DNA of 64,000 nt from an uncultured Aquimarina sp. (GCA_947501475.1 CANMWA010000009.1:76308-140307), one strand, 5' to 3'. Shown: positions 21,561 to 54,449, counted from the stretch's first letter. The notes: generated from the sequence alone by a model not told the origin. Numbers and translations are program-made.

Positions 21561-21590
21561 AACCTTTATACAAATCAAAATTCATTAATT

Positions 21591-23492: not shown

Positions 23493-23533
23493 GCAATAAA
23501 ATCATCTAATAATAATTATTAAAGCATAAAAAA

Positions 23534-24423: not shown

Positions 24424-24433
24424 ATGTTATCTG

Positions 24434-24595: not shown

Positions 24596-24602
24596 AATTA
24601 TT

Positions 24603-27080: not shown

Positions 27081-27120
27081 AAAGTATTGAACAAATAATA
27101 AAATTAAAGAATAATACAAT

Positions 27121-27411: not shown

Positions 27412-27412
27412 T

Positions 27413-27823: not shown

Positions 27824-27839
27824 TTCTTAAAACCAAACA

Positions 27840-30800
27840 ATGTCAGAAAAATGTGAAAATATTGATAGTATCCTAAGAAGAAATGCTAGGGATCAAGAAC
27901 AACGATATAATAAAATACTCGACCCAGATAGTCTAAAACTACATGATTTAGAAATCGAGGATTGGATGTTATTTGCATATAACTTTGCAAAACACATCAA
28001 CTATTTCAAACCAGAAAATGATAGCGCTCCTTCAGGAGATTGGCAGGATTTATTTCGTTATTTTAGTTTTAATGGTGATACTATTCCCTTACGAGGTGAA
28101 TCAGCATATCAAAAACTAAAAGATGAGATTACGGCAACGCTTGCGGCGCAAGAAAAAGAAGGAGAAGTTACTCCTCACTTTACCTTGTTTATTTGTTTTC
28201 TTAAATTATTAAGTCTGTCGCAAGAAAGATTTAATGGACTCACCAAAAGACACCTCGATTTTTATTATAAAGAAATCCTGAAAGTTGAAAAACTCGCTCC
28301 AGAAGCAGATAAAGTACATGTTTTATTCGAAATTGCTAAAAAAAGTGTTAACGAACGAGTGGCAGAAGGAACAGAATTAGATAGCGGTAAAGATGCAGAC
28401 GGGAATAAACGTATTTATAAAACTTCAGAAGAATTAATAGCCAATAAGGCACAAGTAGCTGTACTCAAGAATATCCATAACGATTTTAATTCAAAAGATT
28501 TAAAAGTAAGTGAAATAGCAAATTCTTATGGTGGTAATGGAGATGATTTTCCGGATACCGAAACCAATTGGTGGCCTTTTGGATACCCTAGTACCGAAAC
28601 CAATTATCCAGAATTAGATACTGCTTCAATTGGTTTTTCTATCGCCTCGCCGTTATTATTACTTCAAGAAGGAAAACGTAAGGTAACAATTACTATTTCC
28701 TTTCAAGAAACATTAGAATCAATGGATCCTCAGGATTTGGCAGATGTTATAGAGTTTTATGGCACTGGTGAAGAAGATTGGGTAGGGCCATTTAAACTTG
28801 ATAGTAATGAAACAAAAATTCAAGATAAACAATTAATACTTGGTTTTACTTTAGAGAAAGATATACCAGGTATTGTTGGTTATAATCCAGAGATAATACC
28901 AGGGGCGTATGATACTGCGTTTCCGATATTTCGGTTTTTGATAGATCAAAACAAAGAAATAGATCAAGATGGGGAGGTTGTTTCATCAAAAGGATACTCA
29001 TTGTATACCAAGATTGCCACCAAAACTCTTGAATCCATAAAAATATTTGTAGATGTAGATGATGTGACATCACTAGCTTTAGAGAATGATACAGGGGTGC
29101 TTAATGCAAATAAACCTTTCTATCCTTTTACTACGCAACCAGTCATTAAATCAAATTTTTATATCGATTACCCAGAGTTGTTTTCTAAACAATGGAGAAA
29201 TATGAGAGTACAAGTCGAGTGGAAAAATACACCACCAAGCTTTAATACTTTGTATAAAGATTATGGGACTGCTTATCAAGATATACAGGATAGCTATTTT
29301 ACAGCAAAAACAGAGATCCTAAGAAAAGAAATATGGGAAAAAGAAGACCAGCTTAGGTTGTTTACTATCAATGAAGGAGTATATACTGCCGATCATATAA
29401 TAAATAATACAAATGACCATCTGGCGGGTTCTAGCGGTCCGTTACGATTTTCATTAAACAAATCATTTTTACATAGTATTTTTCCAAGAGTGTATGCAAT
29501 TGCTATTGCTCAGGCAATTAAAGATCCTAAGCTTCCAGTGCCAGGAGAACCGTATACCCCATTAATAGAAACCATATCATTAGACTATGAAGCGGAAGAG
29601 ATTACGTACTTTTCTAAATACAATAAAAGAAGAAAATATTATACGAATGTAATTGATGAAAAAGGGTATCGTCAAAACCGGATCAAATTATTTCATGAAA
29701 ATGCTTTTGGACAACATGAAGAGCATGGATACCTTAAGAAGGTAAAAAAAGATAATGATATCCTGGATCAGGATGATTTTAATACTACTATTGCTGCGCA
29801 AGAAAACTCCTTAAGCGAATTTGAAGTTCAAGATATACAGAACAACAGTACGCTTATTCCAACATATTGTAGAGGAGGTTCATTGCTTATTGGATTAGAA
29901 GAAGCACAGATAAATCAACAAATTTCATTACTAATACAAGTGCTCGAAGGAAGTGAAAACCCAAATGATGAAGGTTTTTTATCTAATCAACGAGTAGAAT
30001 GGTCAGTTTTGTGTAGCAATCACTGGAAAGATATTCAGGACGATATCATTATCAATAGTACAGATAATTTATTAAAATCTGGAATTATAAAATTCGGAAT
30101 TCCAAAACAAGCGACCTCTCAAAATACTCGATTACCAGATGGATACATCTGGATAAGAGCAAGAATTCATAAAAAATATAATGCCGTTAGTAAAGTAAAA
30201 GCAATTCATGCTCAAGCGGTAGTTGCAGTTTTTGATGATCGAAATAATGAATTATCTCATTTAGAGAATAGCCTACCTAATGGTAGTATAAGTAAGTTGA
30301 TCACTAGAGTACCACAGATCAAGTCCATTAGTCAACCGTATAATTCTTTTGATGGAAGCCCTCAAGAATCAGATGAAACGTATTATAGACGTATTAGTGA
30401 ACGACTACGTCATAAAAATAGAGCAATAACACTATGGGATTATGAAAACCTGGTATTACAAAAATTTCCAGAAATCTATCAGGTAAAATGCCTTAATCAT
30501 ACTAATATGTTGGTGTCACCACCATCATTTTTATCACCAGGACATGTAGCACTGGTAGTTATACCTGATACAATTAATAAAAATGTGTTTGATATTTTTC
30601 AACCTAGAGTTAGTAAAGCCACATTAAATAAAGTAAAGCGGTATATAAATAAATTAAACACGATGCATGTCACTACAGAGGTAGTTAACCCTACCTATGA
30701 AGAAGTAGAAATATCACTTTCAGTTAAGTTTTTTGATCAATATGACGAAAATTTTTATACCAAACAATTAAGCGAAGATATAACCAAGTTTTTATCGCCA

Positions 30801-39779: not shown

Positions 39780-42700
39780 ATGACAACGACATTAGAGGCA
39801 ATAACCACCAATTTTAGACGGTTTACTAAAAACCAGGTGCTTACCGAGGGGCACCTTAACCAAATCGTAGATTATTTTGATGATCAGATACGACTGTCCA
39901 GAACCTGCCTTAGTGGCGTGGGAATCGTGTGCGGTTTTGAGGTAAACTGTGATGATATTACCAAAGAAATTACCATCACGCAAGGAGTAGGGGTAACCAC
40001 CGATGGAGACCTGTTTAGCCTGTTTTTACCAGCAGATGATGGCGATTTTCGTATCGATTTCGAATCGTTAGCCTACAAAGGATACAAAACTTATGATAAT
40101 AGTAATGTACAGTATGAACCATTTTTCTATAAAAATAATAAACAGATTACCCTACGAGAGCTCACTCTTGAGGATAGTGGTAATGGGGTTAAACCTCTAA
40201 ATGGTCTAGCTACGCTTAAAGACATGGTTGTGTTATTATACCTCGAAACCTTTGTTGAAGACACAGATTTATGTACGACTCTGGGGTGTGATAATCAGGG
40301 TGAAAATAGAGTGGCAAATCATAAGGTGTTATTGGTAAATAAAACCGATGCGCAGCATATTATTGATCAAGATCCATCGATTCAAAAAACTAATTATAGT
40401 AAACTATATTATGATCTGCCCGAGGTGATCATGAATAAAGTGGTAGCTGTCCCAGATATTTTTGATTCATATACTGATCTAAAACGAAGTTTTGCCGATG
40501 CTATTTTAGATAAAGAAGTGATCAAAAATCTAGGTGACGGTTTTAAAATCATGTTAGGAATGGACTATATCGATGCTCCTGATCTCCTTTCAGAAATAGA
40601 AACAAAAATAGATCAGGTATTCGATTTTGAAGCACCTAATGCTCCTGCAGATGTACAATATCGTTATGATCTGCTTAAAGATCTGGTCGATACATATAAT
40701 GAAATCAAGCAAATACTATTACATATTGATGTATCTGATTGTTGTGCTGGATACCAGGATTTTCCTAAACATCTAATGATAGGTGAGGTTCAAAAAGAAG
40801 GTCAATGCTACGCATATAGACATGGGTTTTATAAATCTCCGATATTAGCAAATAATACATCTACTGGATGTGAAAGTTGCGATCCGGTAACACTAGATTA
40901 TGATTTTGAAGGCAGTACCGATGATGTACCTGCTTGCGAGGGTAGTATCGATCCCAATGGAGATCATGGCCACCATATCGTTTTTGTAATCGATGAGTCT
41001 GGTTCTTTTAGGCGACAAAAAGAATTTGTAACGCAAGCACTTAATGGATACTTGGATTCTGTTATGAATACGAATACCTATGTGTCTCTTATCGGGATGA
41101 CGTATAACGATAATACAGTAAGACAAGATCATTTGATTTATAGACCGGTAGCAGATCCAAGTTTACGAGATTGGATCTCTATGTTTGCCGATCCGTCGTC
41201 TCCAAGTTATCGTATTGGGGGTGATTTTTGGGGCACAGGCTATACTGTAGTAATAGATGCAATTCTCAATACCAGAGTTCCCGACCCGGCCATTGTGATC
41301 ACCTTGGCAGACGAATACCCCGGGGGGACTCATATAATTTCTGCAGAACGGGCAACCTATATTAAGAAGAGAACAAAACTTTTTAATTATATCGTGGATT
41401 ACGATAACAATAATATTCTTGCCCCTAATGCTGCTAATTCATTACCACCAGGCAACATTGCAAGTATCGATGGAGAGTCTGATCTAGACACTGCCGATTA
41501 CTTTTTTACAGCCAACTTTAATGATCTTGAAATTAAGATCAAAAACCTAAATGAATCACTAATCAATTCTAATATATTTTGCCAGGAAACAACAGCAGAT
41601 GAGGTAGATCCTTCAAAAGGAGAACTTACCATTTGTTATAGTGCTGATAAAAGTGAACAACGACTTTTTAGTTTAATTAAGAGAGTAGCATTACAGCTAA
41701 CCAATTATAATCCTGAGTATAGATTTGTCAAAATAACGCCATCACTAGAACTAGGAGTTTTAAGTAAAAAAGCAATTCCATTCTATTATAATGTAGGAGA
41801 AAAACTGATCGAATACTGGGATTTTGATAAGACCGTGATGGGTAGACATAAAACCAATCTTAGTTATCACGATAGTCTTTTGGCAATCAAAAAACCATTA
41901 CAGTTTTGTATAGATAATGATTTTTATCGCGTTGAAGGACATTTGGGGCGTAATTACCTCGAAGTAATTGATAGAATCAATACGGTAAAAAAATCTAATA
42001 GTTTAGGATTTAATGTGGTAGCATTACCACTTAATTCTCGTGATGTAGTGGGTATAGATTATAAGGAATATTATCTGAGTAAAAATTATGGTTTAGAACA
42101 TAAAGCAGGAGTGCCAGAGGGAGGAACATTAATATTATTTTATTTAGAGACTACCCAAATTGAAGAAGATAGAATTTCTGAAGATTTTATAGAGGAACAA
42201 ACTCGAAGATCTGATAAAGTTCGCCGCGTTAAAACAGTCGAAGAAGGACAGAAAAACGAAAAACGTTTGCCTGTAGCATCTCAATTTAATACTTTATTTG
42301 TAAATGAAACCAACCCGGTGGTAGCAGATTTCTGTTTACCATATCTATGTTGTGATGAAAACGAACCAGATGCCTGCTTACCAGATGAAATAGTATGCTT
42401 TGATGAGGAAACAGAACGCATTCCTTTTGAAGTTACTCCAAGAAACGCTGTAGTAACAGCAGATGTTGCATTAGGCCTTAATGGGGGAGTAGTAATTGAT
42501 AGAGCTGGTAATTATTTCTTTGATCCAAAAATTGTAAGTGAAATACTTCATGGTACTCAGATTCGATTTAAAGTAAATAATCAACGATCAAAATTTTCGG
42601 TTAAAATATTTAGAAAACCAGAACTAGAAATTACAAATACATTAACCTATGAAAGCAATAGGACTGTTGCTCGTGTAATCTTTACCATTACAGGAAGCGA

Positions 42701-42992
42701 GTTAAACCAAATTAGTTTATACCGATGGGATTTTGGAGATGGTTCTCCAATATCTGATCAACAACCAAATTCAACTGGACAAGTAGTGCATAGTTATCGT
42801 TTACCAGTGAATAGTGCCAATATTGTTAATCCAAAATTAACTGTGGTAAAAGGGCTATGTGAAACAGAAGTACCTATCGATGAAATTGATTTTGGAGAAG
42901 TACCTTATTACTATTACTATGGTTCTGATAATGTTAAAGGTTTTGATCTCGACTCAGACAGTATTTTATCTATATCTATAGGAGATTTATAA
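39780..42992 (+). CDS. eCIS fibre-like protein A (Afp13-like N-terminus) with inserted vWA domain and C-terminal PKD-like domain
   Basis: NQVLTEGHLN...RLSRTCLSGVGIVCG N-terminus; VFVIDESGS MIDAS; FYRVEGHLG, GLEHKAGV, VVADFCLPY; YRWDFGDGS. Confidence 0.72.
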   Translation: MTTTLEAITTNFRRFTKNQVLTEGHLNQIVDYFDDQIRLSRTCLSGVGIVCGFEVNCDDITKEITITQGVGVTTDGDLFSLFLPADDGDFRIDFESLAYKGYKTYDNSNVQYEPFFYKNNKQITLRELTLEDSGNGVKPLNGLATLKDMVVLLYLETFVEDTDLCTTLGCDNQGENRVANHKVLLVNKTDAQHIIDQDPSIQKTNYSKLYYDLPEVIMNKVVAVPDIFDSYTDLKRSFADAILDKEVIKNLGDGFKIMLGMDYIDAPDLLSEIETKIDQVFDFEAPNAPADVQYRYDLLKDLVDTYNEIKQILLHIDVSDCCAGYQDFPKHLMIGEVQKEGQCYAYRHGFYKSPILANNTSTGCESCDPVTLDYDFEGSTDDVPACEGSIDPNGDHGHHIVFVIDESGSFRRQKEFVTQALNGYLDSVMNTNTYVSLIGMTYNDNTVRQDHLIYRPVADPSLRDWISMFADPSSPSYRIGGDFWGTGYTVVIDAILNTRVPDPAIVITLADEYPGGTHIISAERATYIKKRTKLFNYIVDYDNNNILAPNAANSLPPGNIASIDGESDLDTADYFFTANFNDLEIKIKNLNESLINSNIFCQETTADEVDPSKGELTICYSADKSEQRLFSLIKRVALQLTNYNPEYRFVKITPSLELGVLSKKAIPFYYNVGEKLIEYWDFDKTVMGRHKTNLSYHDSLLAIKKPLQFCIDNDFYRVEGHLGRNYLEVIDRINTVKKSNSLGFNVVALPLNSRDVVGIDYKEYYLSKNYGLEHKAGVPEGGTLILFYLETTQIEEDRISEDFIEEQTRRSDKVRRVKTVEEGQKNEKRLPVASQFNTLFVNETNPVVADFCLPYLCCDENEPDACLPDEIVCFDEETERIPFEVTPRNAVVTADVALGLNGGVVIDRAGNYFFDPKIVSEILHGTQIRFKVNNQRSKFSVKIFRKPELEITNTLTYESNRTVARVIFTITGSELNQISLYRWDFGDGSPISDQQPNSTGQVVHSYRLPVNSANIVNPKLTVVKGLCETEVPIDEIDFGEVPYYYYYGSDNVKGFDLDSDSILSISIGDL

Positions 42993-42998
42993 TACATT

Positions 42999-43847
42999 TT
43001 GGAAAAGATAAATATAATATATAGCCTTAATACACATCCCATTATCCATAATCGATGGAACATGGGAAATAAATTTGAAGATACAATTTATATGACAGCT
43101 ACTAGTGTTTTGCATAGCTGTTTATGGTACGATACAATAAAACTATATGTAGACCCTATTGCGTATCAATATCTTTCGGGTTTGCCTTGTGAGGTTATTA
43201 AGGTTGATTTTGATATTGATCAGGAATTATGGATGGAGTCAAAATTATATGCTATAAAAAATGAACATGAGCCTTTTGTGCATATGGATACCGATGTGTT
43301 TATCAAAAAACCGATCGAGTTTATTTTTGATAAAGTCATAGTTGAGCGCAAAGATGCAGCATATTATTATTACAAGAATTTGATCACCTTTTTTGATCAA
43401 TATTGTAAAGATATATCATTCTGGAATCCAGAAATTCCATATGCATGGAGTTGTGGTATCATAGGGTTTAAAGATTTGAGATTAAAAAATGAATTCGTTC
43501 AATGTTATACTATACTTAAGAATGTTTTGCGAGAACATAGACAGGCCTATGAATCTTTTAAAAAAGGGGAACGAGGCTATTTAGAAGTTGCACTGTTATT
43601 AGAGCAATATAACTTAACAAGTTTATTGTCTTATTTAAGAGTACAACCAAATGTTTTGATACCCGGAGATAGTAAAAAAGAACAATCGGTATATGCAAAT
43701 CAAATAGGCTATACTCATTTATTGGGAGCATCAAAGTATCATCCCAAAAATGTAAATAAAATGAAAGAACTATTAAAGACTAAGTTTTTATCTCATTATA
43801 ACAAGATTAAAAACAAATTTGAAGAAAATAGCATCATAAATGCTTAA
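42999..43847 (+). CDS. DUF6734-like GT-A-fold (DxD) glycosyltransferase-like protein 1
   Basis: WMESKLYA, FVHMDTDVF, CGIIGF, LLEQY, IGYTHLLGASK. The TTG start is supported by N-terminal alignment with the next gene. Confidence 0.65.
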   Translation: MEKINIIYSLNTHPIIHNRWNMGNKFEDTIYMTATSVLHSCLWYDTIKLYVDPIAYQYLSGLPCEVIKVDFDIDQELWMESKLYAIKNEHEPFVHMDTDVFIKKPIEFIFDKVIVERKDAAYYYYKNLITFFDQYCKDISFWNPEIPYAWSCGIIGFKDLRLKNEFVQCYTILKNVLREHRQAYESFKKGERGYLEVALLLEQYNLTSLLSYLRVQPNVLIPGDSKKEQSVYANQIGYTHLLGASKYHPKNVNKMKELLKTKFLSHYNKIKNKFEENSIINA

Positions 43848-43909
43848 TGAAAATTAGCATTAAGAAGCAACAATAACGATGTGATTAATACAATAAAGTA
43901 CTAATATAA

Positions 43910-45562
43910 ATGAATAAAATTGTTTACAGTTTCTGGACAAAACCAATCCGCCATAGGTGGGCAAGATATAGTGAAGAGCATAATCTTGAAGATATGCTTC
44001 AATCTTCTATTAATTGTATGTGTTTGTCTGTATTGTATGCCAAAAAATGGGGTTTTGAGGTAGAGATTATTACCGATTTAGATAGCTTTCACCATTTTAA
44101 GGATCTACCTGTAGATCATATCTCTACAGATCTTTCTTTTTTGAGTTATGACAGGACATGGACAAAAGGGAAAATGCTTGCTATAGCAAAGCAAACCAGA
44201 CCGTTTGTACATATGGATTGGGATGTAATTCTTAGAAAGAAAGAGGTTGCAAATATGATCAGGCAATGTACTACAGGAGTATTGGTGCAAAGTGTAGATA
44301 AAGTAGGCTTTGATCGACAATCAAAAGGAGCCAGGGAGATTACTTTTGAAGAGCTAAAATACTTAAAGTGGATGATAGATTTTAAGCCAAATACCGCTGA
44401 AGAAATTATCAAGACATATGATGCTGTTTGTAACACAGCTATTGTTGGTTTTAATGATATGAAAGTAAAGGATGCCTATGTCTCAAATTATTTAAAATGC
44501 CTTGAAATTTCAGAAGAAACAGATTGGATGGATATCTCTAGAGTGATAGACCAATATTCATTGTATTGTTCTGTACAATCAAATAATACAACAATTACTG
44601 AAATATTACCAAGTACCAATAATATCCAGGAAACTGCTAATGATATAGGATACACCCATTTTTCATTTTTGAGTAAGTATACAAAAGTGATACAAAACAA
44701 AATTGTCGCTAGGATTAATGAAGAATTTCCTCAGTATAACCATTTGGTTTCTCCAAAACCTACAATAAATAACCCAATAAAGTTAAGCCTTTGTACAGTG
44801 GTGATGAATCGTTTTGATCATATGGTAACCACATTAGAGCATAATGTAAAGGTTGCAAGGCAATTTAAAGGAGAAGTAGACATTAACATTCTTGATTATA
44901 ATTCTACTGATGGACTTGAAGAACATTTGTTTTTGCAAGATTGGTTTGTAGAGGGTATTGCAGATGGCTTGATCAACTATTATAAAAATTATAAGGCTAA
45001 GTATTTTCATAGAACGCTGCCAAAAAATACCATCCATAATATGGCATTAGGTGAGTATTTGATCAATGTTGATGCAGATAATTATATAAGCCCTAGTTAT
45101 CTAATGTATTGCAAAACAATTGCAGAGCATGAGAAAAACTTCTTTTTACGACCATCAATGCATAGTGCCAAAGGAAGTCTAGGACGTATTGTTGTGCACC
45201 GCGATGATTTTAAAAAATTAGGAGGGTACAACCTTAAAATATCTAATTACGGATATGAGGATGCAGAATTCACATTGAGATTACGAAAACTCGGTATTAA
45301 ACAAATCAATGTACCCTCACACATATGTCTTGATGCTATTGATCATGGAGATCATGATCGAATGGCTAATGAGAAACCAAGAGAAAAAGTTCGATTTGAT
45401 AATGCATTAGAAGATTCTGATTATGAAAATAAGATGATCGACTTTGAATTGTATCCAAACCTCAATGAGATAGTGGATATTGAGTTATTTAAGATTAATC
45501 ATAAAAAACAAAGAATTAAAATATATGACACCCGTACATATACTCTGGACAGAGCCATTTAA
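43910..45562 (+). CDS. DUF6734-like GT domain fused to a GT2/GT7C-like glycosyltransferase
   Basis: N-terminal domain: IVYSFWTKP, FVHMDWDVI, NTAIVGF, IDQY, GYTHF. C-terminal domain: LSLCTVVMNR, ILDYNSTDG, NVDADNY, DFKKLGGYN...YGYEDAEFTLRL. Confidence 0.72.
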   Translation: MNKIVYSFWTKPIRHRWARYSEEHNLEDMLQSSINCMCLSVLYAKKWGFEVEIITDLDSFHHFKDLPVDHISTDLSFLSYDRTWTKGKMLAIAKQTRPFVHMDWDVILRKKEVANMIRQCTTGVLVQSVDKVGFDRQSKGAREITFEELKYLKWMIDFKPNTAEEIIKTYDAVCNTAIVGFNDMKVKDAYVSNYLKCLEISEETDWMDISRVIDQYSLYCSVQSNNTTITEILPSTNNIQETANDIGYTHFSFLSKYTKVIQNKIVARINEEFPQYNHLVSPKPTINNPIKLSLCTVVMNRFDHMVTTLEHNVKVARQFKGEVDINILDYNSTDGLEEHLFLQDWFVEGIADGLINYYKNYKAKYFHRTLPKNTIHNMALGEYLINVDADNYISPSYLMYCKTIAEHEKNFFLRPSMHSAKGSLGRIVVHRDDFKKLGGYNLKISNYGYEDAEFTLRLRKLGIKQINVPSHICLDAIDHGDHDRMANEKPREKVRFDNALEDSDYENKMIDFELYPNLNEIVDIELFKINHKKQRIKIYDTRTYTLDRAI

Positions 45563-46439
45563 GAAGAATAATAAGAAAATAGAATCGTGTACTCATATGT
45601 TCTTAAGCGCTACCATGATCAAACAGGTTTATGGCGAGATTCATGTGATTACTGATAGATACGGTGAGTATTTAATCAATCAATTAGGATTGCCTTATGA
45701 CAAAGTGCATTTGGGATTAGATCAAGCTACAAGTGATTTTACATTTCCTGATGCCAAAGTTCTTGCTTACAAAATGCTCTCTGATATTATTCCGGGATAC
45801 TTGTACTTTGATTTTGATATTTTTATTACTAGACCGGTTCTTAAAAAAGATTTTATTGTGCAATGTGACGAAGGAGCATCGCCTTATCCATATCGTATAT
45901 ATCAATATTTGATTGACAAAGGAATCGAATTTTGTTATGATTACGAACTTTCGGATTTAAGGTTCTTCAATATGGGATTATTTCGTTGTGCTGATAAAAG
46001 AATTGTATACGAGTATTATGAATCCTATTTCACTACAAAATATCAAAATCAATATATAAAAATAGATGATGTACTGACTCCTCAATATGTGATGTTTTTA
46101 GAACAAAATTATATCTATAAAGTGTTACAAAAGAATAATTTACTCGACCAGGTACATGAGCATTTTCCTGCTCGGCAGAATCAATATAATAATTTTGGTT
46201 TTGATGTTTTTATAGATAAAGCAAATGCAATAATGAATGAATATGATAATGATGATTTAGAATTTGACCCAAATTATCACGCACCATCCGATATTAAAAA
46301 TATTGATATAACAGGATATACGCATTTGATGTATTTTAAAGAAAATGAAGAAGTGTTGACAGATGTAGTAGAATATGCATTTACGAACTATCCTAAAGAG
46401 TTTTCAAAATTAATGGTAAAAATGAAACATATTTGTTAA
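45525..46439 (+). CDS. DUF6734-like DxD glycosyltransferase-like protein 3
   Basis: VHILWTEP, LSATMIKQVYGEIHVITD, KVLAY, YFDFDIF, FNMGL, FLEQN, GYTHL. ATG at 45525 is preferred. Confidence 0.62.
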   Translation: MTPVHILWTEPFKKNNKKIESCTHMFLSATMIKQVYGEIHVITDRYGEYLINQLGLPYDKVHLGLDQATSDFTFPDAKVLAYKMLSDIIPGYLYFDFDIFITRPVLKKDFIVQCDEGASPYPYRIYQYLIDKGIEFCYDYELSDLRFFNMGLFRCADKRIVYEYYESYFTTKYQNQYIKIDDVLTPQYVMFLEQNYIYKVLQKNNLLDQVHEHFPARQNQYNNFGFDVFIDKANAIMNEYDNDDLEFDPNYHAPSDIKNIDITGYTHLMYFKENEEVLTDVVEYAFTNYPKEFSKLMVKMKHIC

Positions 46440-47990
46440 ATGACCAACGCAGGAAAACATATCATTAATAAAGTCTATGTAGAGGTAAATACTGCTTCCA
46501 AAGAACAGGCCTACCATATCAAAGATAATCTCGATGTGTTTTTAAAAGAGCATGTTTTTCAGCAAATAGAAAATCATTTTGACACCATTGAAAAAGACAT
46601 TAAAAATAATATTGTAAGAATAGAAAAGCTAGATTTGGATCTAACGGTAAACAGTGATTTTAAATATGATGATTTAAAACAAAAAATTACTGTAGGATTA
46701 GAGAAAGTGATTCGCGAAAAAATAGAAGATAGTATTGTTAGCAAAGATCATGAGGATATATTTCTAACGAGTGATGATAATATCCTTACATCCTTTTTTT
46801 ATTTCCTCGAGAGAGGCACTATGCCCTGGTGGAAAGGAATAGAAACTTCAAGTTTTTTGCTGGATGATGAGGTGTTATATGGCGTCTTAGAAAAAAATGA
46901 ATTTGAGCGCTTGTTTCAAGAAAAAATAAAACAATCTTATGTCAGAAAACGATTTATAAAACAGTTTTCTGATCAAGCTATTATCACAATATTGATACAC
47001 TCGTATAAGAATAGTAGCGCCAATAATCATATAGATATCACAAGACTCTTAAACGATGAATTGATTTTGTTGTTAGAAGCTGTACAACCCGAATTTAGAA
47101 CAGAAATCTGGAATCAAATCATCATCTTTTACACCACAGTTAATCCAGCATCATTATATCAGACGATTTATAAGCTAAAGGATACTTTGTATATAGAAAA
47201 CGAGAAATCTATAAAATCAATTCAGATTAACAGTTCAGAAATCTTTAAAAATTTTCAAAAGAAGATTGTATGGTTCGATATGTTGATCGAAACACGACAA
47301 TCTAATAATGATACAATTAAGAGTGATGATCCAAAACCAATACACTTAGCGAAAAAGGATACAGATAAAAATATTGAAGATCAAATAAAAACTGACGATA
47401 AAAACCGTCAGGGTATTAAAGATGATATAGGAGAACCCAAGGTAGAACCAATAGATGAAAATACTGATCAAATAGATCAAGATAATGTTCTTGAACAAGA
47501 AGGATACTATCTAGAAAATGCAGGATTAATACTAATACATCCGTTCCTGAAACATTTTTTTGAACATTGCGAATTACTCAATGAAGATGGCACCATTAAT
47601 GATCCCGAATTGGCAGTGCATGTCTTACATTATCTAACGACAAAAAATGAAAATCAGCCAGAATATCTTATGATACTCGAAAAATTTTTATGTAATGTCC
47701 CAATTCATAAATCAATTCATAGAAATATTACAATACCTCAAAAAATCAAGGAACAATCAGAGGAGTTATTACAAGCAGTAATTCAAAACTGGGGAGCACT
47801 CAAAAATGCCTCTTCAGATTTATTACGCAATGAATTTTTGCAACGATCTGGTAAACTTGTGCTCACTGATAAGAGCCCCAAAATTATTGTAGAAAGAAAA
47901 ACACAAGATATTCTTTTGGATAGATTGCCGTGGAATATAAGTATCGTAAAACTACCATGGAAAGACAAGCTAATCTTTGTAGACTGGTAG
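46440..47990 (+). CDS. Contractile injection system tape-measure protein (Afp14-like)
   Basis: KHIINKVYVEV N-terminus, YFLERGTMPWW, LENAGLILIHPFL, LRNEFLQRSGKL, DILLDRLPWNISIVKLPW. Confidence 0.88.
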   Translation: MTNAGKHIINKVYVEVNTASKEQAYHIKDNLDVFLKEHVFQQIENHFDTIEKDIKNNIVRIEKLDLDLTVNSDFKYDDLKQKITVGLEKVIREKIEDSIVSKDHEDIFLTSDDNILTSFFYFLERGTMPWWKGIETSSFLLDDEVLYGVLEKNEFERLFQEKIKQSYVRKRFIKQFSDQAIITILIHSYKNSSANNHIDITRLLNDELILLLEAVQPEFRTEIWNQIIIFYTTVNPASLYQTIYKLKDTLYIENEKSIKSIQINSSEIFKNFQKKIVWFDMLIETRQSNNDTIKSDDPKPIHLAKKDTDKNIEDQIKTDDKNRQGIKDDIGEPKVEPIDENTDQIDQDNVLEQEGYYLENAGLILIHPFLKHFFEHCELLNEDGTINDPELAVHVLHYLTTKNENQPEYLMILEKFLCNVPIHKSIHRNITIPQKIKEQSEELLQAVIQNWGALKNASSDLLRNEFLQRSGKLVLTDKSPKIIVERKTQDILLDRLPWNISIVKLPWKDKLIFVDW

Positions 47991-48041
47991 CGATACATAG
48001 ATAATAAAATAGTGAAATAACTAATAAAATACACACAAATC

Positions 48042-51000
48042 ATGATCACCAAATTAGCCAAAATAACACCTGGTTTTAGAAGGTTTTCCAGAAGTCAATT
48101 TCTGACAGAAAACCTGTTAAACCAACTATTTGATCATTTTGATGACCAGATTCGTTTATCTAGAGTGAATCTAAGTGGTGTTGGGATTGTCTGTGGTTTT
48201 GAGGTAAGCAAAACTGCTGATGTAATTACTATACAACAAGGACTTGGGGTTACTACAGATGGGGATTTGTTACACCTGTATGTTGATCTAGACGAAGGCG
48301 GTAAGAGTATTAAATTTCCTAGCATAGCGTATACACATTTTCGAGTGTATGACAATAGTAAATCAGAGTATAGCCCGTTTTTTTATCAAGACAATAATCA
48401 AATAGAGTTATTTGAATTACTGCCCGGATACGAAAACTCAGAAACACTAAGTTTAAGTAATTTTCCGAGAGAAGATAGACCAGATCTAGAAGATATGGTA
48501 GTGCTTATTTACCTAGAAAACTATGAGCGAAATATTAATAAATGTAGTAGTTTAAACTGTGATGGTGAAGGGACAGATATTGTAGCAAATTATAGAATTT
48601 TAATTACTTCTAAAGCCGATGCAGCATATATTAATAGCTATGATAATACAATAAGCAAACCTAATTATGGTAAGTTATATTATAAGATTCCAGAGATATT
48701 ACTTCCAAAAGTAATTGTAACCGCCGAGGATTTTGAAAGCTCAATAAAATTAGGCAAACGTTTATCATTGCCTTTCGAAAACCTAAAATTATTAAATAAT
48801 CTTGTCGAAGGTTTCTCAGCCATATTCGATGTTTTGCAATTACCAGATCTCAAACAAAGACTACTAACAAAGTTCAATGATTTATTTATATCAACAACGG
48901 GTTCTGATCTTATACTAGATGATTTACAATATCGATATGATATATTAAAAGATGTAGTAGATACTTATAATGAGATAAAAAGACTTTTGCTAGAATTGTC
49001 CTCTAGAGCATGCAACGCAAATCAAGGAGATTTTCCTAAGCATTTAATGTTGGGCGAAGTATCAAAAGAGGGGGTTTGTTATAGCTGTAGGCATAGTTTT
49101 TATAAATCGATATTACATACTTCTAAAAGCGGGGATCCTTGTTTTGATTGTAATGCAATAGCAAATGATCAAAACGATACTATTTGTTTTGATATTCATG
49201 AGCCAGAACAACTACTTTACAGTCTTTTGATACGAGTAGTTAAACAACTCGAAAATTATAACTCAAAACATACTGAAATTAAAATAACACCTTCATTCTT
49301 ACAAGGTAGTTTAGGAAGAAAAGCGATTCCGTTTTATAATGATGTAGACAACACATTACTAAAACTTTGGGATTTTGAGAAATCTGCAAAAGGAATAGAA
49401 ACCTCTAATAGAAGTTATCATAGAGATTTATTAAATACTGATGATCCATTTGCAATATGTATCGATAAAGATTTTTATAGAATCGAAGGACATCGAGGTC
49501 AAGATTATAAAGCTGTACTTAATCGATTAAAAGAACTAAAACGAGAACATGCGATAAGTTTTAATGTTGTCGCACTAGGGATTTCTAGTAATTTCTTTAC
49601 GCAAGAAGGCAATAGCGAAGAAATTAGTATCCCTATGAGAGGGGGCGAAGAAAACTATACGTCATATTATGTAAATAATAGGCCAGGACTAGAGCATAAA
49701 GCAGGAGTAACCCCAAAAGGAACTTTTGTGATTGTATTTTTAGAGGATTTCCTTATACAGGAAGGTAGAAGTTTAAAAAATAGAGTAGCAAAAATAGAAG
49801 CCGCTGAGGGATTTGAAGGATCATTTAATCCTGTAATAGCAGATTTTATGGTTCCTTACTTATACTGTGATGAAAGTCTGCCAACGTTAAAACTCCCAGA
49901 AGAATCTATATGTTTTGATAGCGATACCAAGCCAATACCATTCGAAACCACTCCCAAAGATGGTTTTGTAGTCGCTTTGGTACCTAGAGGTCTAAACGGA
50001 GGAGTTACACGAAACGCAAATGGGAGATCATTTTTTAACCCTAAACTAGTGAGCCCGCAGCTTATTAACACCCCAATAAGATTTGAAATAAATAATCAGG
50101 ATACAGATGCGGTAATCACAATTCATCGCAGACCAGAACCAATAATTACAACTACGGTTACTTATGATAATCCGTTCAAAACAGAAGTTACAGTAACATA
50201 TACGGTATCTGGTCCATATAGTAGCGAAATTACCGAATACAAATGGGACTTTTTAGGAGACGGTAATACAGTTATTATCGAACCAGATGCTTCTGGAAAT
50301 GTGGTAAGAAACTACCAAAACCCAGTAGCACCAAACCCTACTGTAATCAGTTCAAAACTCGATGTAAAAACTGATTTTTGTAGCAATACGATACTTATTG
50401 ATCCTATTATTTTTGATGACCCAATAGTAATAGAACTCGATTTTGATAGAAACGAAATTTGCGTGAATCCTGCAGCATGTGATGTTCCTACACACATTGC
50501 TTTGATAGTAGATGAATCTGGATCTATAAGCGGAAATGAAATTACCGAAATAAAAGATGGATTAAGAGCTTTTATTGACGGTCAAGAAGGTACAAATAAT
50601 GTGATCACATTATTAAATATGCATGACTCAGATAACGGAAGACCTCTTAATATTATAGATGAATTACCAATAATTGCCAGCACAAAAGGTCGGTTTACAC
50701 AATGGATAGATAATTATCGTACATCTGCATCTGGAGCAGCAGGCAATTCGCATTTTTGGACCAGCGGAATAGGGTATTTAATTAATGATTTACCTAATGT
50801 TCTCAATAGCCTTAAAACAAATCCAGACATTGTAATTTTAATAGCCGATGGTGTTGCTGCTACTGATTCTTTGCGATTTAAGCAAAGAGTGGCTGCGCTA
50901 AATTCGAGATCACATTTGTTCTTTTATGCATTAAGTAGCCCAACTGAAACTGCAGTAGGATATGGTAATGACTTACCAGGGTACCTTAGAAATCAAGTGC

Positions 51001-52199
51001 TCGACAGATCACCTATTAGAATCAATGCTGATTTCTCAAATATAGAAACAGCAGATTATGGCACATTTGCTAGTTTTAACCAATTAGCAAGATTTTTAAC
51101 GAATCTAAAACAGATTTTAGATAATGCAATTGGTTGTATCGAAAAAATTAACATAACGGCATTGCAACCTATACAAGGATCTGTACAGACAGCAGGAAGT
51201 ACGGTGTATAATGGTATAGACATACAAGGGCGTACGATCTCAATTAATCCAAAAGAGTTTGATGCCTATGGTGAAGAGATCGCATTTACAGTAGATGGAT
51301 TTGAAACAAATGAAACACTACTCGTAGAAAGAGCTCCAGAAGAAGTTAGGGTTGCAGTAAATGAGATTGTATATAACGAGGATAGAACAAAAGCTACAGT
51401 AACATTTGGTGTTAGTGGTAACTTCTTACCAGTATTTCCTTCTTTATTATGGAACTTTGGTGATGGAACTGAAGAACAACAAGGGTCAGAATTAGCTCAA
51501 AAGCATGAGTATACAGATATTGCAAATTTACCCAATAGAACTGCTAGTGTAAGTGTAGAAATTGCAAACCCTATATGTGGCCCAGTTACACAAGGAGTAA
51601 GAGTAGTATTCGAAGATGTCGAAGAAAAAGTATCACTAAGAATTAATCCTAGAATGTGTTTGGATTCGGCTACCGAAATGGATAGCGCTCTTACGGTACC
51701 ATTTGTAGTCACTCCCGAAGGAGGAAAATTAAAGGTTGTACGACGAACCAACGGAATGCGTATAGGAACAAATCAGATTGTATTTACCCCTTCAACCTTT
51801 AGGAGGTATGATACGCCTATAGCGTTTACAGTAAATGACCAACCAGTACCAGATACTTTAACGGTAACGAAGAAACCTAATGTTGATTTCAGTATGCAAA
51901 TTGGACCTCTCGAGATTGGAGAAATAATAGAAGATTCAGAAGGAGATATTATCGGAGGAGGAGAAGGAAGAATATTTGCAAGTAGTGTTAAGTTTAGTAT
52001 TGTGAATCTAAATGAGTTTGATGAAACACAATATAAATTTTCTTGGATTTTTGGAGATAATAGCACTTCTGAAGAGAAGAACCCTACACATCGCTATAGA
52101 TATAGAGGTGATGTTGCTGTGCCAGTAGAATTAACAGTTTCTGATGGGTTTTGTGAAACCGCAGTCGCGCAAGTATTAAGAATAAGAGTTGCTACTTGA
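48042..52199 (+). CDS. eCIS fibre-like protein B (paralogue of A) with vWA domain and three PKD-like domains
   Basis: Same N-terminal core (QFLTENLLNQ...RLSRVNLSGVGIVCG; FYRIEGHRG; GLEHKAGV); ALIVDESGS; YKWDFLGDG, LWNFGDG and SWIFGD...NPTHRY. Confidence 0.72.
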   Translation: MITKLAKITPGFRRFSRSQFLTENLLNQLFDHFDDQIRLSRVNLSGVGIVCGFEVSKTADVITIQQGLGVTTDGDLLHLYVDLDEGGKSIKFPSIAYTHFRVYDNSKSEYSPFFYQDNNQIELFELLPGYENSETLSLSNFPREDRPDLEDMVVLIYLENYERNINKCSSLNCDGEGTDIVANYRILITSKADAAYINSYDNTISKPNYGKLYYKIPEILLPKVIVTAEDFESSIKLGKRLSLPFENLKLLNNLVEGFSAIFDVLQLPDLKQRLLTKFNDLFISTTGSDLILDDLQYRYDILKDVVDTYNEIKRLLLELSSRACNANQGDFPKHLMLGEVSKEGVCYSCRHSFYKSILHTSKSGDPCFDCNAIANDQNDTICFDIHEPEQLLYSLLIRVVKQLENYNSKHTEIKITPSFLQGSLGRKAIPFYNDVDNTLLKLWDFEKSAKGIETSNRSYHRDLLNTDDPFAICIDKDFYRIEGHRGQDYKAVLNRLKELKREHAISFNVVALGISSNFFTQEGNSEEISIPMRGGEENYTSYYVNNRPGLEHKAGVTPKGTFVIVFLEDFLIQEGRSLKNRVAKIEAAEGFEGSFNPVIADFMVPYLYCDESLPTLKLPEESICFDSDTKPIPFETTPKDGFVVALVPRGLNGGVTRNANGRSFFNPKLVSPQLINTPIRFEINNQDTDAVITIHRRPEPIITTTVTYDNPFKTEVTVTYTVSGPYSSEITEYKWDFLGDGNTVIIEPDASGNVVRNYQNPVAPNPTVISSKLDVKTDFCSNTILIDPIIFDDPIVIELDFDRNEICVNPAACDVPTHIALIVDESGSISGNEITEIKDGLRAFIDGQEGTNNVITLLNMHDSDNGRPLNIIDELPIIASTKGRFTQWIDNYRTSASGAAGNSHFWTSGIGYLINDLPNVLNSLKTNPDIVILIADGVAATDSLRFKQRVAALNSRSHLFFYALSSPTETAVGYGNDLPGYLRNQVLDRSPIRINADFSNIETADYGTFASFNQLARFLTNLKQILDNAIGCIEKINITALQPIQGSVQTAGSTVYNGIDIQGRTISINPKEFDAYGEEIAFTVDGFETNETLLVERAPEEVRVAVNEIVYNEDRTKATVTFGVSGNFLPVFPSLLWNFGDGTEEQQGSELAQKHEYTDIANLPNRTASVSVEIANPICGPVTQGVRVVFEDVEEKVSLRINPRMCLDSATEMDSALTVPFVVTPEGGKLKVVRRTNGMRIGTNQIVFTPSTFRRYDTPIAFTVNDQPVPDTLTVTKKPNVDFSMQIGPLEIGEIIEDSEGDIIGGGEGRIFASSVKFSIVNLNEFDETQYKFSWIFGDNSTSEEKNPTHRYRYRGDVAVPVELTVSDGFCETAVAQVLRIRVAT

Positions 52200-52273
52200 T
52201 TATAGCAGTATAAAAGATCACGAAATCCTGATCTTTTATGTTTAAATTTATATACTATATTAAAAGAGAAATT

Positions 52274-53116
52274 ATGAAAACAATACGATACCGTTCTCGA
52301 GGAGAAGATGTTCATTACTTAGAAGAGATACTAACAAAATTAGGATATACGGTTTATGTTTCTAATTTTTTTGGAAAAGATACCCATGAAGCTGTAAAGG
52401 ATTTTCAGGCTAAAAATGGATTGGTGGTTGATGGTATAGTTGGTCTTAAATCCTGGTCAAAACTTATTGAAGCCGAAAGAAACCTGATAGCATTTAATGA
52501 TAAATTTTTATCAGAGCAGGATGCCAAAGAGTTTGCAACTCAGTTTGGTCTTGAATTAGCAATGGTAAAAGCAGTTAATGAAGTAGAAAGCAGAGGTAAA
52601 GGGTTTTTGGTGTATGGAAGACCTGTAATTTTATTTGAAGGACATATATTTTGGAGAGAATTAGAAAAACGAGGAGTGAATCCTTCTCAATACGTGTCTG
52701 AGCATACCAAAAATGTATTATATAAAAAATGGACTAGAACTCATTATAAAGGTGGGGCTGGTGAATATGATCGATTAGAAAAAGCTGCAGGGATTTCAGA
52801 TATACCTGCATTTCATGATGCTGCATATAGTGCTGCTTCATGGGGGGCTTTTCAGATCATGGGGTTTCATTATGACCATTTGGGATATGCATCTATAGAT
52901 CATTTTGTTTCAGAAATGTATGAGCACGAAAGAGAACACCTTAAAGCTTTTGGCAAATTTATCGAGAAGACTTCTTTTAAAGGAAAAAAACTAATCGATT
53001 GGATAAAAGAGAAAAATTGGGCCAAATTTGCAGAAGGATATAATGGACCAGGATATAAAAAGAATAAATACGATATCAAATTGAAGAACGCCTATGTCAA
53101 GTACAGTAACAACTAA
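52274..53116 (+). CDS. Endolysin: peptidoglycan-binding domain plus DUF3380 N-acetylmuramidase
   Basis: RGEDV..LEEIL..LGY...FQAKNGLVVDGIVG; AVNEVESRG, ILFEGHIF, SWGAFQIMGFHY. ATG at 52274 is preferred. Confidence 0.9.
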   Translation: MKTIRYRSRGEDVHYLEEILTKLGYTVYVSNFFGKDTHEAVKDFQAKNGLVVDGIVGLKSWSKLIEAERNLIAFNDKFLSEQDAKEFATQFGLELAMVKAVNEVESRGKGFLVYGRPVILFEGHIFWRELEKRGVNPSQYVSEHTKNVLYKKWTRTHYKGGAGEYDRLEKAAGISDIPAFHDAAYSAASWGAFQIMGFHYDHLGYASIDHFVSEMYEHEREHLKAFGKFIEKTSFKGKKLIDWIKEKNWAKFAEGYNGPGYKKNKYDIKLKNAYVKYSNN

Positions 53117-54449
53117 TACCATACATGAAACCGAAATACAAACGTTATTTCAATATCTAGAAAGGTATATAACATATAGACTTGATAAAGAGTTTAAAAA
53201 TGAAAAAACCGAATTACCGATACTGTATTTAGATTCTTACAAGTCTCCTTTAGCAAGTTTTATAATAAATAACAAACTCTCTGAGGTAGATGTAGTATTA
53301 ATACTTCTTGCACTTATACCACATATTAACCCTGCGTTATTGCAACAAATCGTGTCTGCGTATTTTCCAGATGGAGGTCAATTTATAGATTTTGGTGGGG
53401 CAACAGGTAAATATCATAGAGGCATTATCCCCACAGGAGAAACAGCTTTATATATCATTGTTGGAAACAACCTTGATGAACGCTTATCACTTATAGAGTA
53501 TATAAGCTCTAGGTCATCACTTTTCAAACAGCAAATATTATATATAGAAAATGTACCCAAAGGTGAACCAGTGATGAGTGGTAAATTACTTATAGATCAG
53601 GAATATTTATCATTATTAACTACGGGTAGGATATTAAAACCTAAACTTGGTCAAGATTTTCCTGCCAGCCTTATTACCACAGATCTTGAATGGACCGATT
53701 TGGTGTTACAAGAAAAAACATTAGATCAAATTCAGGAAATAGAAGTTTGGTTGAAGCATAATGATATATTGATGAATGAATGGAACATGAAGAGCAAAAT
53801 CAAACCTGGATATAGAGTAATGTTTTATGGCGCTCCTGGAACCGGTAAAACACTTACCGCTAGTTTACTAGGTAAATATACAGGCCGAGACGTATACCGT
53901 ATAGATTTATCTATGGTGATTTCAAAATATATAGGAGAGACCGAAAAAAACTTATCTTCTTTGTTCGATAAAGCAATCAATAAAGATTGGATCCTTTTTT
54001 TCGACGAAGCCGATGCTATATTTGGTAAAAGAACTAATGTAAGAGATGCCCATGATAAATATGCTAATCAAGAAGTTTCTTATTTATTGCAGCGTATAGA
54101 AGCGCATCCTGGGCTAGTTATTTTGGCTTCAAATTTTAAAACAAATATCGATACTGCATTTACAAGAAGGTTTCAATCTATTATCGAATTTCAGCTTCCA
54201 GGCAACGCCGAACGACTACAACTATGGCAAAAAATATTACCTAACAATATTGAATTAGAAGATAAGATATCTTTGGATGAATTGTCTAGAAAGTATGCTA
54301 TTACAGGAGCAAATATTGTAAATGTTATACAATATGCCAGTTTAAAAACTATAGCAAATAAGCAACAGCAAATTAGGCTGAGTTACCTTCTTGAAGGCCT
54401 TAAAAAAGAATATACCAAAGAAGGGAAAACCATTACAATTACTTCATAA
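53094..54449 (+). CDS. AAA+ ATPase (Afp15-like)
   Basis: Walker A GAPGTGKT, IDLSMVISKYIGETEKNL, Walker B LFFDEAD, DAHDKYANQEVSYLLQRIE, AFTRRF. Confidence 0.95.
   Translation: MSSTVTTNTIHETEIQTLFQYLERYITYRLDKEFKNEKTELPILYLDSYKSPLASFIINNKLSEVDVVLILLALIPHINPALLQQIVSAYFPDGGQFIDFGGATGKYHRGIIPTGETALYIIVGNNLDERLSLIEYISSRSSLFKQQILYIENVPKGEPVMSGKLLIDQEYLSLLTTGRILKPKLGQDFPASLITTDLEWTDLVLQEKTLDQIQEIEVWLKHNDILMNEWNMKSKIKPGYRVMFYGAPGTGKTLTASLLGKYTGRDVYRIDLSMVISKYIGETEKNLSSLFDKAINKDWILFFDEADAIFGKRTNVRDAHDKYANQEVSYLLQRIEAHPGLVILASNFKTNIDTAFTRRFQSIIEFQLPGNAERLQLWQKILPNNIELEDKISLDELSRKYAITGANIVNVIQYASLKTIANKQQQIRLSYLLEGLKKEYTKEGKTITITS

Follow-up and report, generated by a model that had tools for sequence, protein, structure and literature searches.

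A DUF6734 glycosyltransferase-like cassette beside the tail-fibre genes of an AlgoCIS-like injection locus in an uncultured Aquimarina sp.: candidate enzymes for particle glycosylation

Extracellular contractile injection system (eCIS) particles are engineered as programmable protein-delivery devices, the targeting of which is assumed to rest on the fibre protein alone. The subject of this analysis is a stretch of 64,000 nucleotides (nt) from an uncultured Aquimarina sp. (GCA_947501475.1, CANMWA010000009.1:76308-140307), hereafter the window, and within it a cassette of three adjacent genes, numbered 1 to 3, which lie in an eCIS locus and code for predicted glycosyltransferases (GTs) of the Pfam family DUF6734. 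The locus shares with AlgoCIS of Algoriphagus machipongonensis a sheath (E = 8.9e-185 against the AlgoCIS sheath, 7adz), a fibre N-terminus (E = 4.5e-68 against the AlgoCIS tail fibre Alg19, 9wt0_a), a DUF4157 cargo and a similar gene order, but goes beyond it in the cassette itself, in a fibre gene more and in an inserted toxin/immunity pair. Afp18 and PaTox are cargo toxins of large size and several domains, with domains of TcdA/TcdB type and genes at the 3' end; the window proteins resemble them as DxD glycosyltransferases encoded in an eCIS locus, but are small and leaderless, give no TcdA_TcdB match, are coded among structural genes and are inherited with the core. Phage-encoded glycosyltransferases, as reportedly described by Freeman et al. 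in 2023, glycosylate mycobacteriophage virions: the likeness to the window lies in GT genes carried on a phage-derived element and in a proposed acceptor that is a particle assembled in the cytoplasm, whereas the mycobacteriophage enzymes belong to other families, and the GT genes of the window are linked with genes for tail and fibre, in place of the capsid or tail-tube C-termini of the phage case.

At the level of the individual enzymes, the nearest counterparts of DUF6734 by best fold, motif order and similar motif spacing are retaining GT-A enzymes of families GT8 and GT24 (glycogenin, GlyE, LgtC/WaaJ, the UGGT catalytic domain and the LARGE1 xylosyltransferase domain), from which it differs in lacking sequence-level membership, in reaching template modelling (TM) scores of only 0.4-0.5, and in forming a separate Pfam family without a studied member. 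Gene 2, which codes for two GT-A domains in one chain, is matched in this respect by LARGE1, the Escherichia coli K4 chondroitin polymerase (K4CP), Pasteurella heparosan synthase 2 (PmHS2) and mimivirus R699 (E = 2e-11 to 1e-7 over 540-650 columns), and both LARGE1 and PmHS2 pair a retaining-type with an inverting-type domain, as gene 2 appears to do. Global superposition on such bifunctional enzymes was nevertheless poor (TM 0.25-0.30; root-mean-square deviation ~19 Å), from which it follows that the domains of gene 2 are packed differently from those of LARGE1-type enzymes; further differences are its predicted cytoplasmic location, its place in a phage-tail-like locus, and a polymerase activity that is putative. 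The three genes are as follows.

42999..43847, + strand: gene 1, stand-alone DUF6734 protein of 282 amino acids (aa) with a predicted GT8-like GT-A fold (Pfam E = 4.5e-15, 56.3 bits)
43910..45562, + strand: gene 2, two-domain protein of 550 aa, DUF6734 plus GT2/GT7C-like (Pfam DUF6734 E = 2e-11, 44.3 bits)
45528..46439, + strand: gene 3, divergent DUF6734 paralogue of 303 aa from ATG 45528 (Pfam E = 1e-13, 51.8 bits)

All three scores exceed the gathering cut-off of the DUF6734 model (PF20508, 27 bits), and the low pairwise identity among the genes (21-28%) marks them as old paralogues. An earlier note on this DNA had described three open reading frames (ORFs) at these positions as paralogous DxD glycosyltransferase-like genes, the middle one with an added GT2/GT7C domain, all sharing a set of motifs and all devoid of a signal peptide or DUF4157, and each of these statements was borne out. 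The DUF6734 domain of gene 2 (~nt 43910-44749, GT8-like) is followed by a GT2/GT7C-like domain (~nt 44780-45440), with residues 308-469 matching both PF10111 (Glyco_tranf_2_2, 28.3 bits; cut-off 27.3) and PF02709 (Glyco_transf_7C, 27.1 bits; cut-off 23); together with a DAD motif at residues 388-390 (nt 45068-45082) and an acidic YGYEDAE motif from residue 447 (nt 45248-45268), these matches identify an inverting-type GT-A domain of GT2/GT7C-like character. The key residues of gene 1 are K82, D97-x-D99, C152-G153, E202-Q203 and H240-x2-G243-x2-K246. Corresponding sites in genes 1, 2 and 3, respectively, are DxD at nt 43281-43295, 44210-44224 and 45804-45818, N/C-x-G at nt 43452-43469, 44432-44452 and 45966-45983, EQ/DQ at nt 43599-43613, 44546-44560 and 46098-46112, and GYTH at nt 43707-43736, 44648-44677 and 46314-46331, the divergent gene 3 retaining K, DxD (YFDFD), N-M-G, EQ and GYTH. 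No hydrophobic segment was found in any of the three products (maximum 19-residue Kyte-Doolittle value ~1.0), and the Pfam scan revealed no eCIS_core/DUF4157 domain. Judged by motifs and models together, the three co-oriented, tightly packed genes are predicted to code for soluble cytoplasmic glycosyltransferases with intact catalytic motifs.

Two of the start codons call for comment. Gene 1 was taken to begin at TTG 42999 because homologues cover 98-99% of the 282-aa ORF and the first predicted beta-strand falls at residues 5-10, so that the public gene call (261 aa) begins 21 codons late (42999-43061). Although the ORF of gene 3 opens at TTG 45480, its start is most likely ATG 45528, since the resultant 303 aa then fit the 304-aa orthologue of Aquimarina sp. 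ERC-38; counted from this codon, genes 2 and 3 overlap by 35 nt, and the ERC-38 orthologue overlaps its own gene 2 by 38 nt.

AlphaFold2 models of genes 1 and 2, built from homologue alignments, were of high confidence (predicted local distance difference test, pLDDT, 92.9 and predicted TM score, pTM, 0.91 for gene 1; pLDDT 89.8 and pTM 0.80 for gene 2), and comparison with the Protein Data Bank (PDB) by Foldseek gave the GT-A fold that the earlier note had proposed to look for: each search returned 144-213 PDB matches at E<=1e-3, the best 50 of each being nearly all nucleotide-sugar enzymes, mostly GT-A, with GT8 and GT24 structures foremost. The closest folds to gene 1 were GlyE, the UGGT catalytic domain, glycogenin, the LARGE1 N-domain and Stealth-type phosphotransferases (E = 6e-6 to 1e-4; by entry, 5gvv 6e-6, 5n2j 1e-5, 8cvz 2e-5 and 7ui6 2e-5), while a viral structure library placed a 'glycosyltransferase family 8 protein' first (1.9e-7), followed by phage and giant-virus DxD transferases. 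Several of the proteins with these closest folds (GlyE, UGGT, glycogenin, the LARGE1 N-domain and the viral GT8 proteins) act on protein acceptors. The whole chain of gene 2 matched bifunctional enzymes with two GT-A domains, namely LARGE1 (2e-11), K4CP (3e-11), CHSY3-CHPF, PmHS2 (1e-7), mimivirus R699 and WbbM, and its C-terminal domain alone matched beta4GalT7, SpsA, GtrB and TarS.

Conservation of the proposed catalytic residues was assessed with 146 diverse DUF6734 representatives, of which 91 with no more than 50% mutual identity were aligned. K82, D97, D99, E202, Q203 and H240 were invariant in 91/91 of the aligned subset and present in 98-100% of all 146, and N151, G153 and K246 were conserved in more than 90% of the 91, a constancy across diverse representatives which shows that the motifs are not due to chance. 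Their order (K, DxD, NxG, EQ, HxxGxxK) matches that of the E. coli GT8 enzymes WaaJ and WaaO (LDAD, NSG, DQD, HYTGATKPW). By way of contrast, the Pfam scan yielded no match of genes 1-3 to the GT8 family PF01501 at E<=1, hhalign of the 91-sequence profile against WaaJ plus WaaO returned a probability of 0.6% with a template of two sequences only, neither gene 1 nor the family profile had a match in sequence searches of the PDB, and gene 2 gave only weak beta4GalT7 and spurious helicase matches in the PDB by sequence. Formal membership of GT8 was rejected on the failure of these tests, and DUF6734 is consequently treated as a separate, GT8-like family; the term 'GT8-like' in the earlier note thus holds for fold and motif order and fails for sequence-family membership. 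Models and motifs make it probable that DUF6734 proteins are retaining GT-A glycosyltransferases, in which case the cassette comprises three predicted retaining-type domains and one predicted inverting-type domain.

The neighbours of the cassette that bear most directly on its role, and the locus that contains them, are listed next.

19984..54449, + strand: eCIS locus, AlgoCIS-like, from Pfam scans and the match to the AlgoCIS sheath 7adz
39780..42992, + strand: fibre A, an Alg19-type tail fibre with N-terminal shoulder and neck and a C-terminal PKD-like domain
46440..47990, + strand: tape-measure protein (PF19268, E = 4.5e-109), its first base directly after the gene 3 stop codon
48042..52199, + strand: fibre B, likewise a tail fibre of the Alg19 type, ending in PKD domains (PKD_4, E = 4e-14)

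The eCIS is complete: genes for sheath, tube, spike, gp25, baseplate J, tape measure, cap and AAA ATPase form one string, in the order Pvc16_N cap, sheath, two gp19-type tubes, CIS_tube, VgrG-like spike, gp25, baseplate J and a 921-aa baseplate gene in the 5' part, then DUF4157 toxin, a 219-aa gene, fibre A, the GT cassette, tape measure, fibre B, muramidase and AAA ATPase in the 3' part. A profile built from the first 330 residues of both window fibre genes and their relatives furnished the match to Alg19 quoted above and another to the protein All3314 of the Anabaena thylakoid contractile injection system (7b5h, E = 7.8e-18). Entry 9wt0 represents Alg19 on the AlgoCIS baseplate wedge, and Alg19 trimers mediate bacterial-cell binding (preprint 10.1101/2025.10.08.681156). 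The sheath and fibre matches together establish that the locus is AlgoCIS-like and that both fibre labels are correct; assignment of the window fibres to the DUF6519 type was rejected, hhalign of the fibre N-terminus against DUF6519 being not significant, in favour of the Alg19/All3314 type. Fibre A and gene 1 are separated by 6 nt (TAA, TACATT, then TTG), genes 1 and 2 by 62 nt and gene 3 and the tape measure by 0 nt, the first and last of these in agreement with the earlier note; the cassette had also been placed between the two fibre genes, and whereas fibre A does lie directly upstream, the tape measure intervenes between gene 3 and fibre B.

In a HMMER search over 1.84 billion representatives, 2,329 DUF6734 clusters (at 50% identity) passed E<=1e-3, and 1,292 passed the stricter E<=1e-10; almost all were stand-alone proteins of 260-300 aa in which the domain occupies the chain from its first few residues, with a few fusions of 500-650 aa. 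One genome per species was then scanned with a profile of the close relatives of the window genes, and 66 of the resultant 78 loci carried eCIS markers. Among the Flavobacteriia (Aquimarina, Flavobacterium, Tenacibaculum, Gilvibacter and others), 40 of 42 loci had tape-measure, Alg19-type fibre, DUF4157 and AAA genes; in other phyla (among them Acidobacteriota, Gammaproteobacteria such as Dyella, Paraburkholderia, Fibrobacterota, Chlorobiota and Anaerolineae) eCIS markers were present at 26 of 36. DUF6734 was located directly 3' of a fibre gene, either DUF6519/eBAP5 or Alg19-like, in 23 of these 26 loci, the upstream ORF being DUF6519 by Pfam in 20 of the 26; DUF6519 is the domain, named eBAP5, by which eCIS tail fibres are anchored to the baseplate (PMC12923769). 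The distant eCIS homologues score best against gene 1, which is the orthologue of the single-copy DUF6734 of other genera and phyla.

Equivalent arrangements were found outside eCIS loci. The IMG/VR search yielded one DUF6734 locus, a myophage contig (L086) on which DUF6734 (Pfam E = 2.7e-54) stands between baseplate hub and fibre, the order being sheath, tape measure, two baseplate hub genes, DUF6734, two small genes and tail fibre. A phage contig, L085, carries small and large terminase genes, further genes, DUF6734+GT2, DUF6734 and a tape measure (phrog_3336, 2.4e-28), so that a gene 2/gene 3-like pair stands directly upstream of the tape measure in the same juxtaposition as in the window; a pair of this kind in that position marks a small group of metagenome phage contigs, to which L085 (10001-15458) and L088 belong. 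The slot upstream of a tail tape measure is usually occupied by tail assembly chaperone genes. Glycosyltransferase genes within the structural string of a phage-derived particle are accordingly seen in the window, L085 and L086. In Aquimarina agarilytica, DUF6734 and DUF6734+GT2 genes come after the gene for a tail-fibre-like Peptidase_S74 protein of 1197 aa, with no eCIS markers within 10 kb on either side. Nearest-neighbour labelling of the 146 representatives assigned 80 to a phage/virome-type branch, 15 to phage and 35 to eCIS-linked sequences, with 16 unmarked. The tblastn search of 50,697 GenBank phages with gene 2 gave matches through the GT2 domain only, and PHROGs, NCBIfam and PADLOC contained no DUF6734 model. 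Linkage of DUF6734 to fibre genes recurs in independent phage and eCIS lineages, and the family is one of phages and phage-tail-like elements, one part of which is fixed in eCIS loci.

Where the cassette is present, it is inherited with the core genes. Across 41 Flavobacteriia loci the pairwise identity of gene 1 correlated (Spearman) with that of the 921-aa baseplate gene at 0.94, the fibre N-terminus at 0.89 and the tape measure at 0.81, and its mean identity of 0.62 fell between the means of these three. Toxin domains, by contrast, vary from locus to locus (Endonuclea_NS_2 at one; at another Ntox15, accompanied by an immunity gene of the Tdi1 type), and the co-divergence of gene 1 with the core in the face of this variation is the behaviour of a core-linked gene rather than of a swapped effector. 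In Aquimarina a locus combines two fibres and three DUF6734 genes, plus the GT2 domain, with a single DUF4157 gene; in Flavobacterium one fibre is accompanied by one or two DUF6734 genes and by two or three DUF4157 genes; and non-Aquimarina loci in general have up to five DUF4157 genes with one fibre and one or two DUF6734 genes. Cassette copy number therefore follows the fibres and not the cargo.

The earlier note offered two alternatives, a glycan built on the injection particle or a battery of small GT effectors. They are still the right ones, and the evidence leans towards the particle without being decisive. Our tentative preference is for a reading according to which the cytoplasmic enzymes of the cassette attach a short glycan to one of the particle proteins, the fibre being the likeliest; eCIS particles with DUF6734 may thus be sugar-coated. 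The enzymes would act during particle assembly in the cytoplasm of the producer, before release by lysis, and would draw on ordinary nucleotide sugars as donors, a stage of action that fits soluble proteins without a hydrophobic segment. Gene 1 would serve as the conserved priming enzyme that attaches the first sugar to a structural protein, most probably a tail fibre, and the domains of genes 2 and 3, which are also found elsewhere, would form an extension module, giving up to four linkages or a repeating unit, whereupon the glycan could alter fibre binding, stability or visibility. The parallel would be with the phage-encoded enzymes said to glycosylate mycobacteriophage virions. A scan of the eCIS proteins for acceptor tracts rich in serine and threonine found only a weak and unconvincing stretch in the sheath (residues 244-290). 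A more elaborate variant, which we rate as very improbable, would have gene 1 prime the fibre, gene 2 act as a co-polymerase laying down a repeating disaccharide, and gene 3 cap or branch it, such that the glycan itself binds or shields the target and DUF6734 is the general fibre-maturation glycosyltransferase of contractile tails in phages and eCISs alike.

A number of observations weigh against particle glycosylation, beginning with the fact that gene-neighbourhood evidence is only circumstantial. Two close sister loci (VgrG 59-66% identical) have fibre, tape measure and DUF4157 but no DUF6734; these came from a protein search with the fibre N-terminus that returned mostly fragments of frameshifted assemblies, only two being usable, with the AAA gene seen in one. 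The AlgoCIS papers and their supplements likewise mention no glycosyltransferase gene, and the cassette is on both counts an optional accessory that is not needed for assembly. Flavobacterium loci have DUF6734 two genes away from the fibre and adjoining the DUF4157 genes. Metagenome loci of the larger 'HIDGDVF' branch, sampled with a profile of a narrower subset of the 91-sequence alignment, gave 0/80 with eCIS markers: the neighbours were of phage type, led by a sigma factor (14/132) and then baseplate hub, tape measure, tail protein, endolysin, holin and DNA methyltransferase, and in phage-like contigs this branch often adjoins the sigma-factor gene and not tail genes, and now and then it sits within a tail module. 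Finally, a pair 41% identical to genes 2 and 3 (L004, 10001-12362) lies in a nonribosomal peptide synthetase (NRPS) cluster. Because the larger branch sits in phage-like contigs without eCIS markers, DUF6734 is not eCIS-specific; the co-occurrence with eCIS fibre genes that the earlier note had suggested looking for is real in the 78-locus sample, both for eCIS loci and for adjacency to the fibre, and does not extend to the family at large. The same note had called the cassette its candidate for a new system, for which an accessory enzyme module, optional within its lineage, is the more accurate description.

Remodelling of the producer surface appears unlikely. On this account a lipid-linked or envelope glycan would be changed so that released particles skip kin cells and debris, a counterpart of phage-encoded receptor modification. 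GT8 includes the lipopolysaccharide-core glucosyltransferases WaaJ and WaaO, the motif order of which (DxD, NSG, DQD, HxxGxxKPW) is that of DUF6734, and the C-terminus of gene 1 forms a lysine-rich helix pair, with 9 K/R against 3 D/E in the last 40 residues, that could attach the protein peripherally to a membrane. In Aquimarina, the acquisition of genes 2 and 3 coincides with a second fibre and a wholly different fibre C-terminus; the eCIS probably targets bacteria, given its endonuclease toxin with a likely immunity gene and the binding of AlgoCIS to bacterial cells; and the phage-borne relatives of DUF6734 could serve the same purpose. Receptor-masking genes are, however, expected to shift with receptor specificity, whereas gene 1 remains 41-46% identical between Aquimarina and Flavobacterium types with unrelated fibre C-termini (~5% identical), and DUF6734 is kept in the eCISs of phyla with very different envelopes, including that of an Anaerolineae metagenome-assembled genome. 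Genes 1-3 code for no membrane segments, and the window contains no envelope-glycan or nucleotide-sugar biosynthesis genes.

Injected toxins, glycosylating a protein of the target cell after the manner of Afp18 and PaTox, seem decidedly unlikely as the function of the cassette. Afp18 of Yersinia ruckeri is an established example of a glycosyltransferase eCIS toxin, tandem paralogues resemble effector arrays, and an immunity gene would be unnecessary if the producer lacked the target. The classifier of Danov et al. 2024 (PMC11297309, Dataset EV4) gave the gene 2 orthologue of Aquimarina sp. AU474 an eCIS-toxin score of 0.971 and a signal-peptide score of 0.223; that classifier rests largely on gene position and N-terminal composition, and in the available part of the source the orthologue is not among the candidates described as tested. 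Neither hallmark of eCIS cargo, DUF4157 or a disordered N-terminal leader, was found: the models of genes 1 and 2 begin a beta-strand at residues 3-5 with pLDDT 88-95, and in the best 150 family representatives the domain starts within the first 36 residues, mostly at residues 1-9. There was no TcdA/TcdB-type (GT44) Pfam match at E<=1 and none among the best 50 PDB folds of each search. The position of the genes, moreover, is amid structural genes, away from the 3' end; gene 1 follows the core in its inheritance while toxins vary; and relatives occur in tailed-phage genomes.

Modification of the cargo, whereby DUF4157 proteins (through long acidic or disordered linkers, for example) would be glycosylated and so kept inactive or competent for loading in the producer, is highly improbable. 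DUF6734 is found directly 5' of DUF4157 genes in 13 of the 26 eCIS loci from other phyla and in Flavobacterium, many eCIS toxins have no immunity gene and the role of DUF4157 is unknown (PMC8213781); but a fibre gene separates cassette from DUF4157 toxin in the window and in other Aquimarina loci, fibre adjacency is the more conserved at 23/26 against only 13/26, DUF6734 copy number is independent of DUF4157 gene number, and phage relatives have no DUF4157 partner. Passenger status, as a mobile glycosyltransferase module for polysaccharide or natural-product decoration that rides in phage-derived loci without a particle role, is held to be a faint prospect, for although the cassette is optional, the larger branch lies outside eCIS loci and the 41%-identical pair keeps company with a GT1 enzyme and an S8 peptidase, most loci of the genome sample are eCIS loci, the fibre-adjacent position is kept across phyla, gene 1 co-diverges with the core and the spacing is tight, with gaps of 6, 62 and 0 nt and one overlap. 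Glycosylation of DNA, an idea taken from the phage relatives, was discarded as a function of the eCIS copies, the particle being devoid of DNA.

The study of Pfam enrichment in eCISs from 2021 appears to predate the DUF6734 model. No mention of 'DUF6734' was found in the literature, the only published pairing of eCIS with glycosyltransferase found was that of Afp18, and the family is absent from the text and 32 supplementary files of the 2026 eCIS fibre catalogue. The only prior trace found of the cassette family is the machine-learning toxin call for the gene 2 orthologue, a prediction. The earlier note's statement that a particle-glycosylation pathway is undescribed for eCISs agrees with the absence of any paper found describing one: glycosyltransferases and phage virion glycosylation are of known kinds, and a conserved GT family tied to eCIS fibre genes is new. 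Should fibres or other parts prove to be glycosylated, a hidden post-translational layer would underlie the target range of particles, their stability and their visibility to immune systems, particles produced heterologously in E. coli would lack that glycan layer, and a function would be available for DUF6734, a family of ~2,300 clusters from phages and eCIS loci for which no paper was found. With three genes and four domains the cassette is a compact unit; were its products toxins instead, they would constitute a new small class of GT effectors without known loading signals.

The DUF4157 toxin of the window and its neighbour occupy one further feature.

33856-39301: DUF4157 (eCIS_core) toxin of 1598 aa, identified by Pfam, with a 219-aa follower gene

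The 1598-aa protein has a weak Endonuclea_NS_2 C-terminus and three acidic 'MEDEEVQTMSSEEDVQ' repeats at nt 34168-34287, and the 219-aa gene 3' of it, which has no family match, is probably its immunity gene. GC content is 0.40-0.45 in 33856-39301 against ~0.32 in the surroundings, and the pair lies between the baseplate gene and fibre A in Aquimarina, whereas the baseplate gene leads directly to the fibre in sister loci; the region has the look of a toxin/immunity module that was inserted. Fibre A is separated from the immunity-like gene by a gene-free gap of 480 nt (39302-39779) with a GC-rich hairpin of 9 pairs (39496-39516) in an AT-rich genome, and the gap may be a transcript boundary before the string of fibre A, GT cassette, tape measure and fibre B. 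A promoter and terminator scan with the sigma-70 consensus, which is unsuited to Bacteroidota, performed at chance level.

Both fibres contain a DxSGS motif (VFVIDESGSF at 40992-41006; LIVDESGSISG at 50511-50525) that resembles a vWA/MIDAS metal-dependent adhesion site, no Pfam VWA match being reported. Flavobacterium-type (L002, 9426-10004) and Gilvibacter-type (L003, 9456-10004) loci have, between tape measure and DUF6734, a conserved 182-192-aa gene without family that overlaps the DUF6734 start by 4 nt and has no counterpart in the window. Further afield, aquatic phage-like metagenome contigs (L116, L119, L126, L128 and L130-L133) share a fixed string of a ~300-aa gene, a ~70-aa gene, DUF6734 and a ~74-aa gene, the first of which is apparently a phage sigma-factor match; the string is not obviously a tail module. 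The NRPS cluster of L004 includes a thioesterase and a TonB-dependent receptor besides the two enzymes already mentioned, and its DUF6734 pair may glycosylate the peptide product.

A muramidase with PG_binding_1 at 52238-53116 lies between fibre B and the AAA ATPase, in a layout shared with Aquimarina sister loci, and could act either in lysis of the producer and release or in penetration of target peptidoglycan. Two large Reg_prop beta-propeller sensors flank the eCIS locus, at 15569-18622 (- strand) and 54566-57475, one with His_kinase/HATPase output and the other with a GAF domain, and are candidate regulators of particle production.

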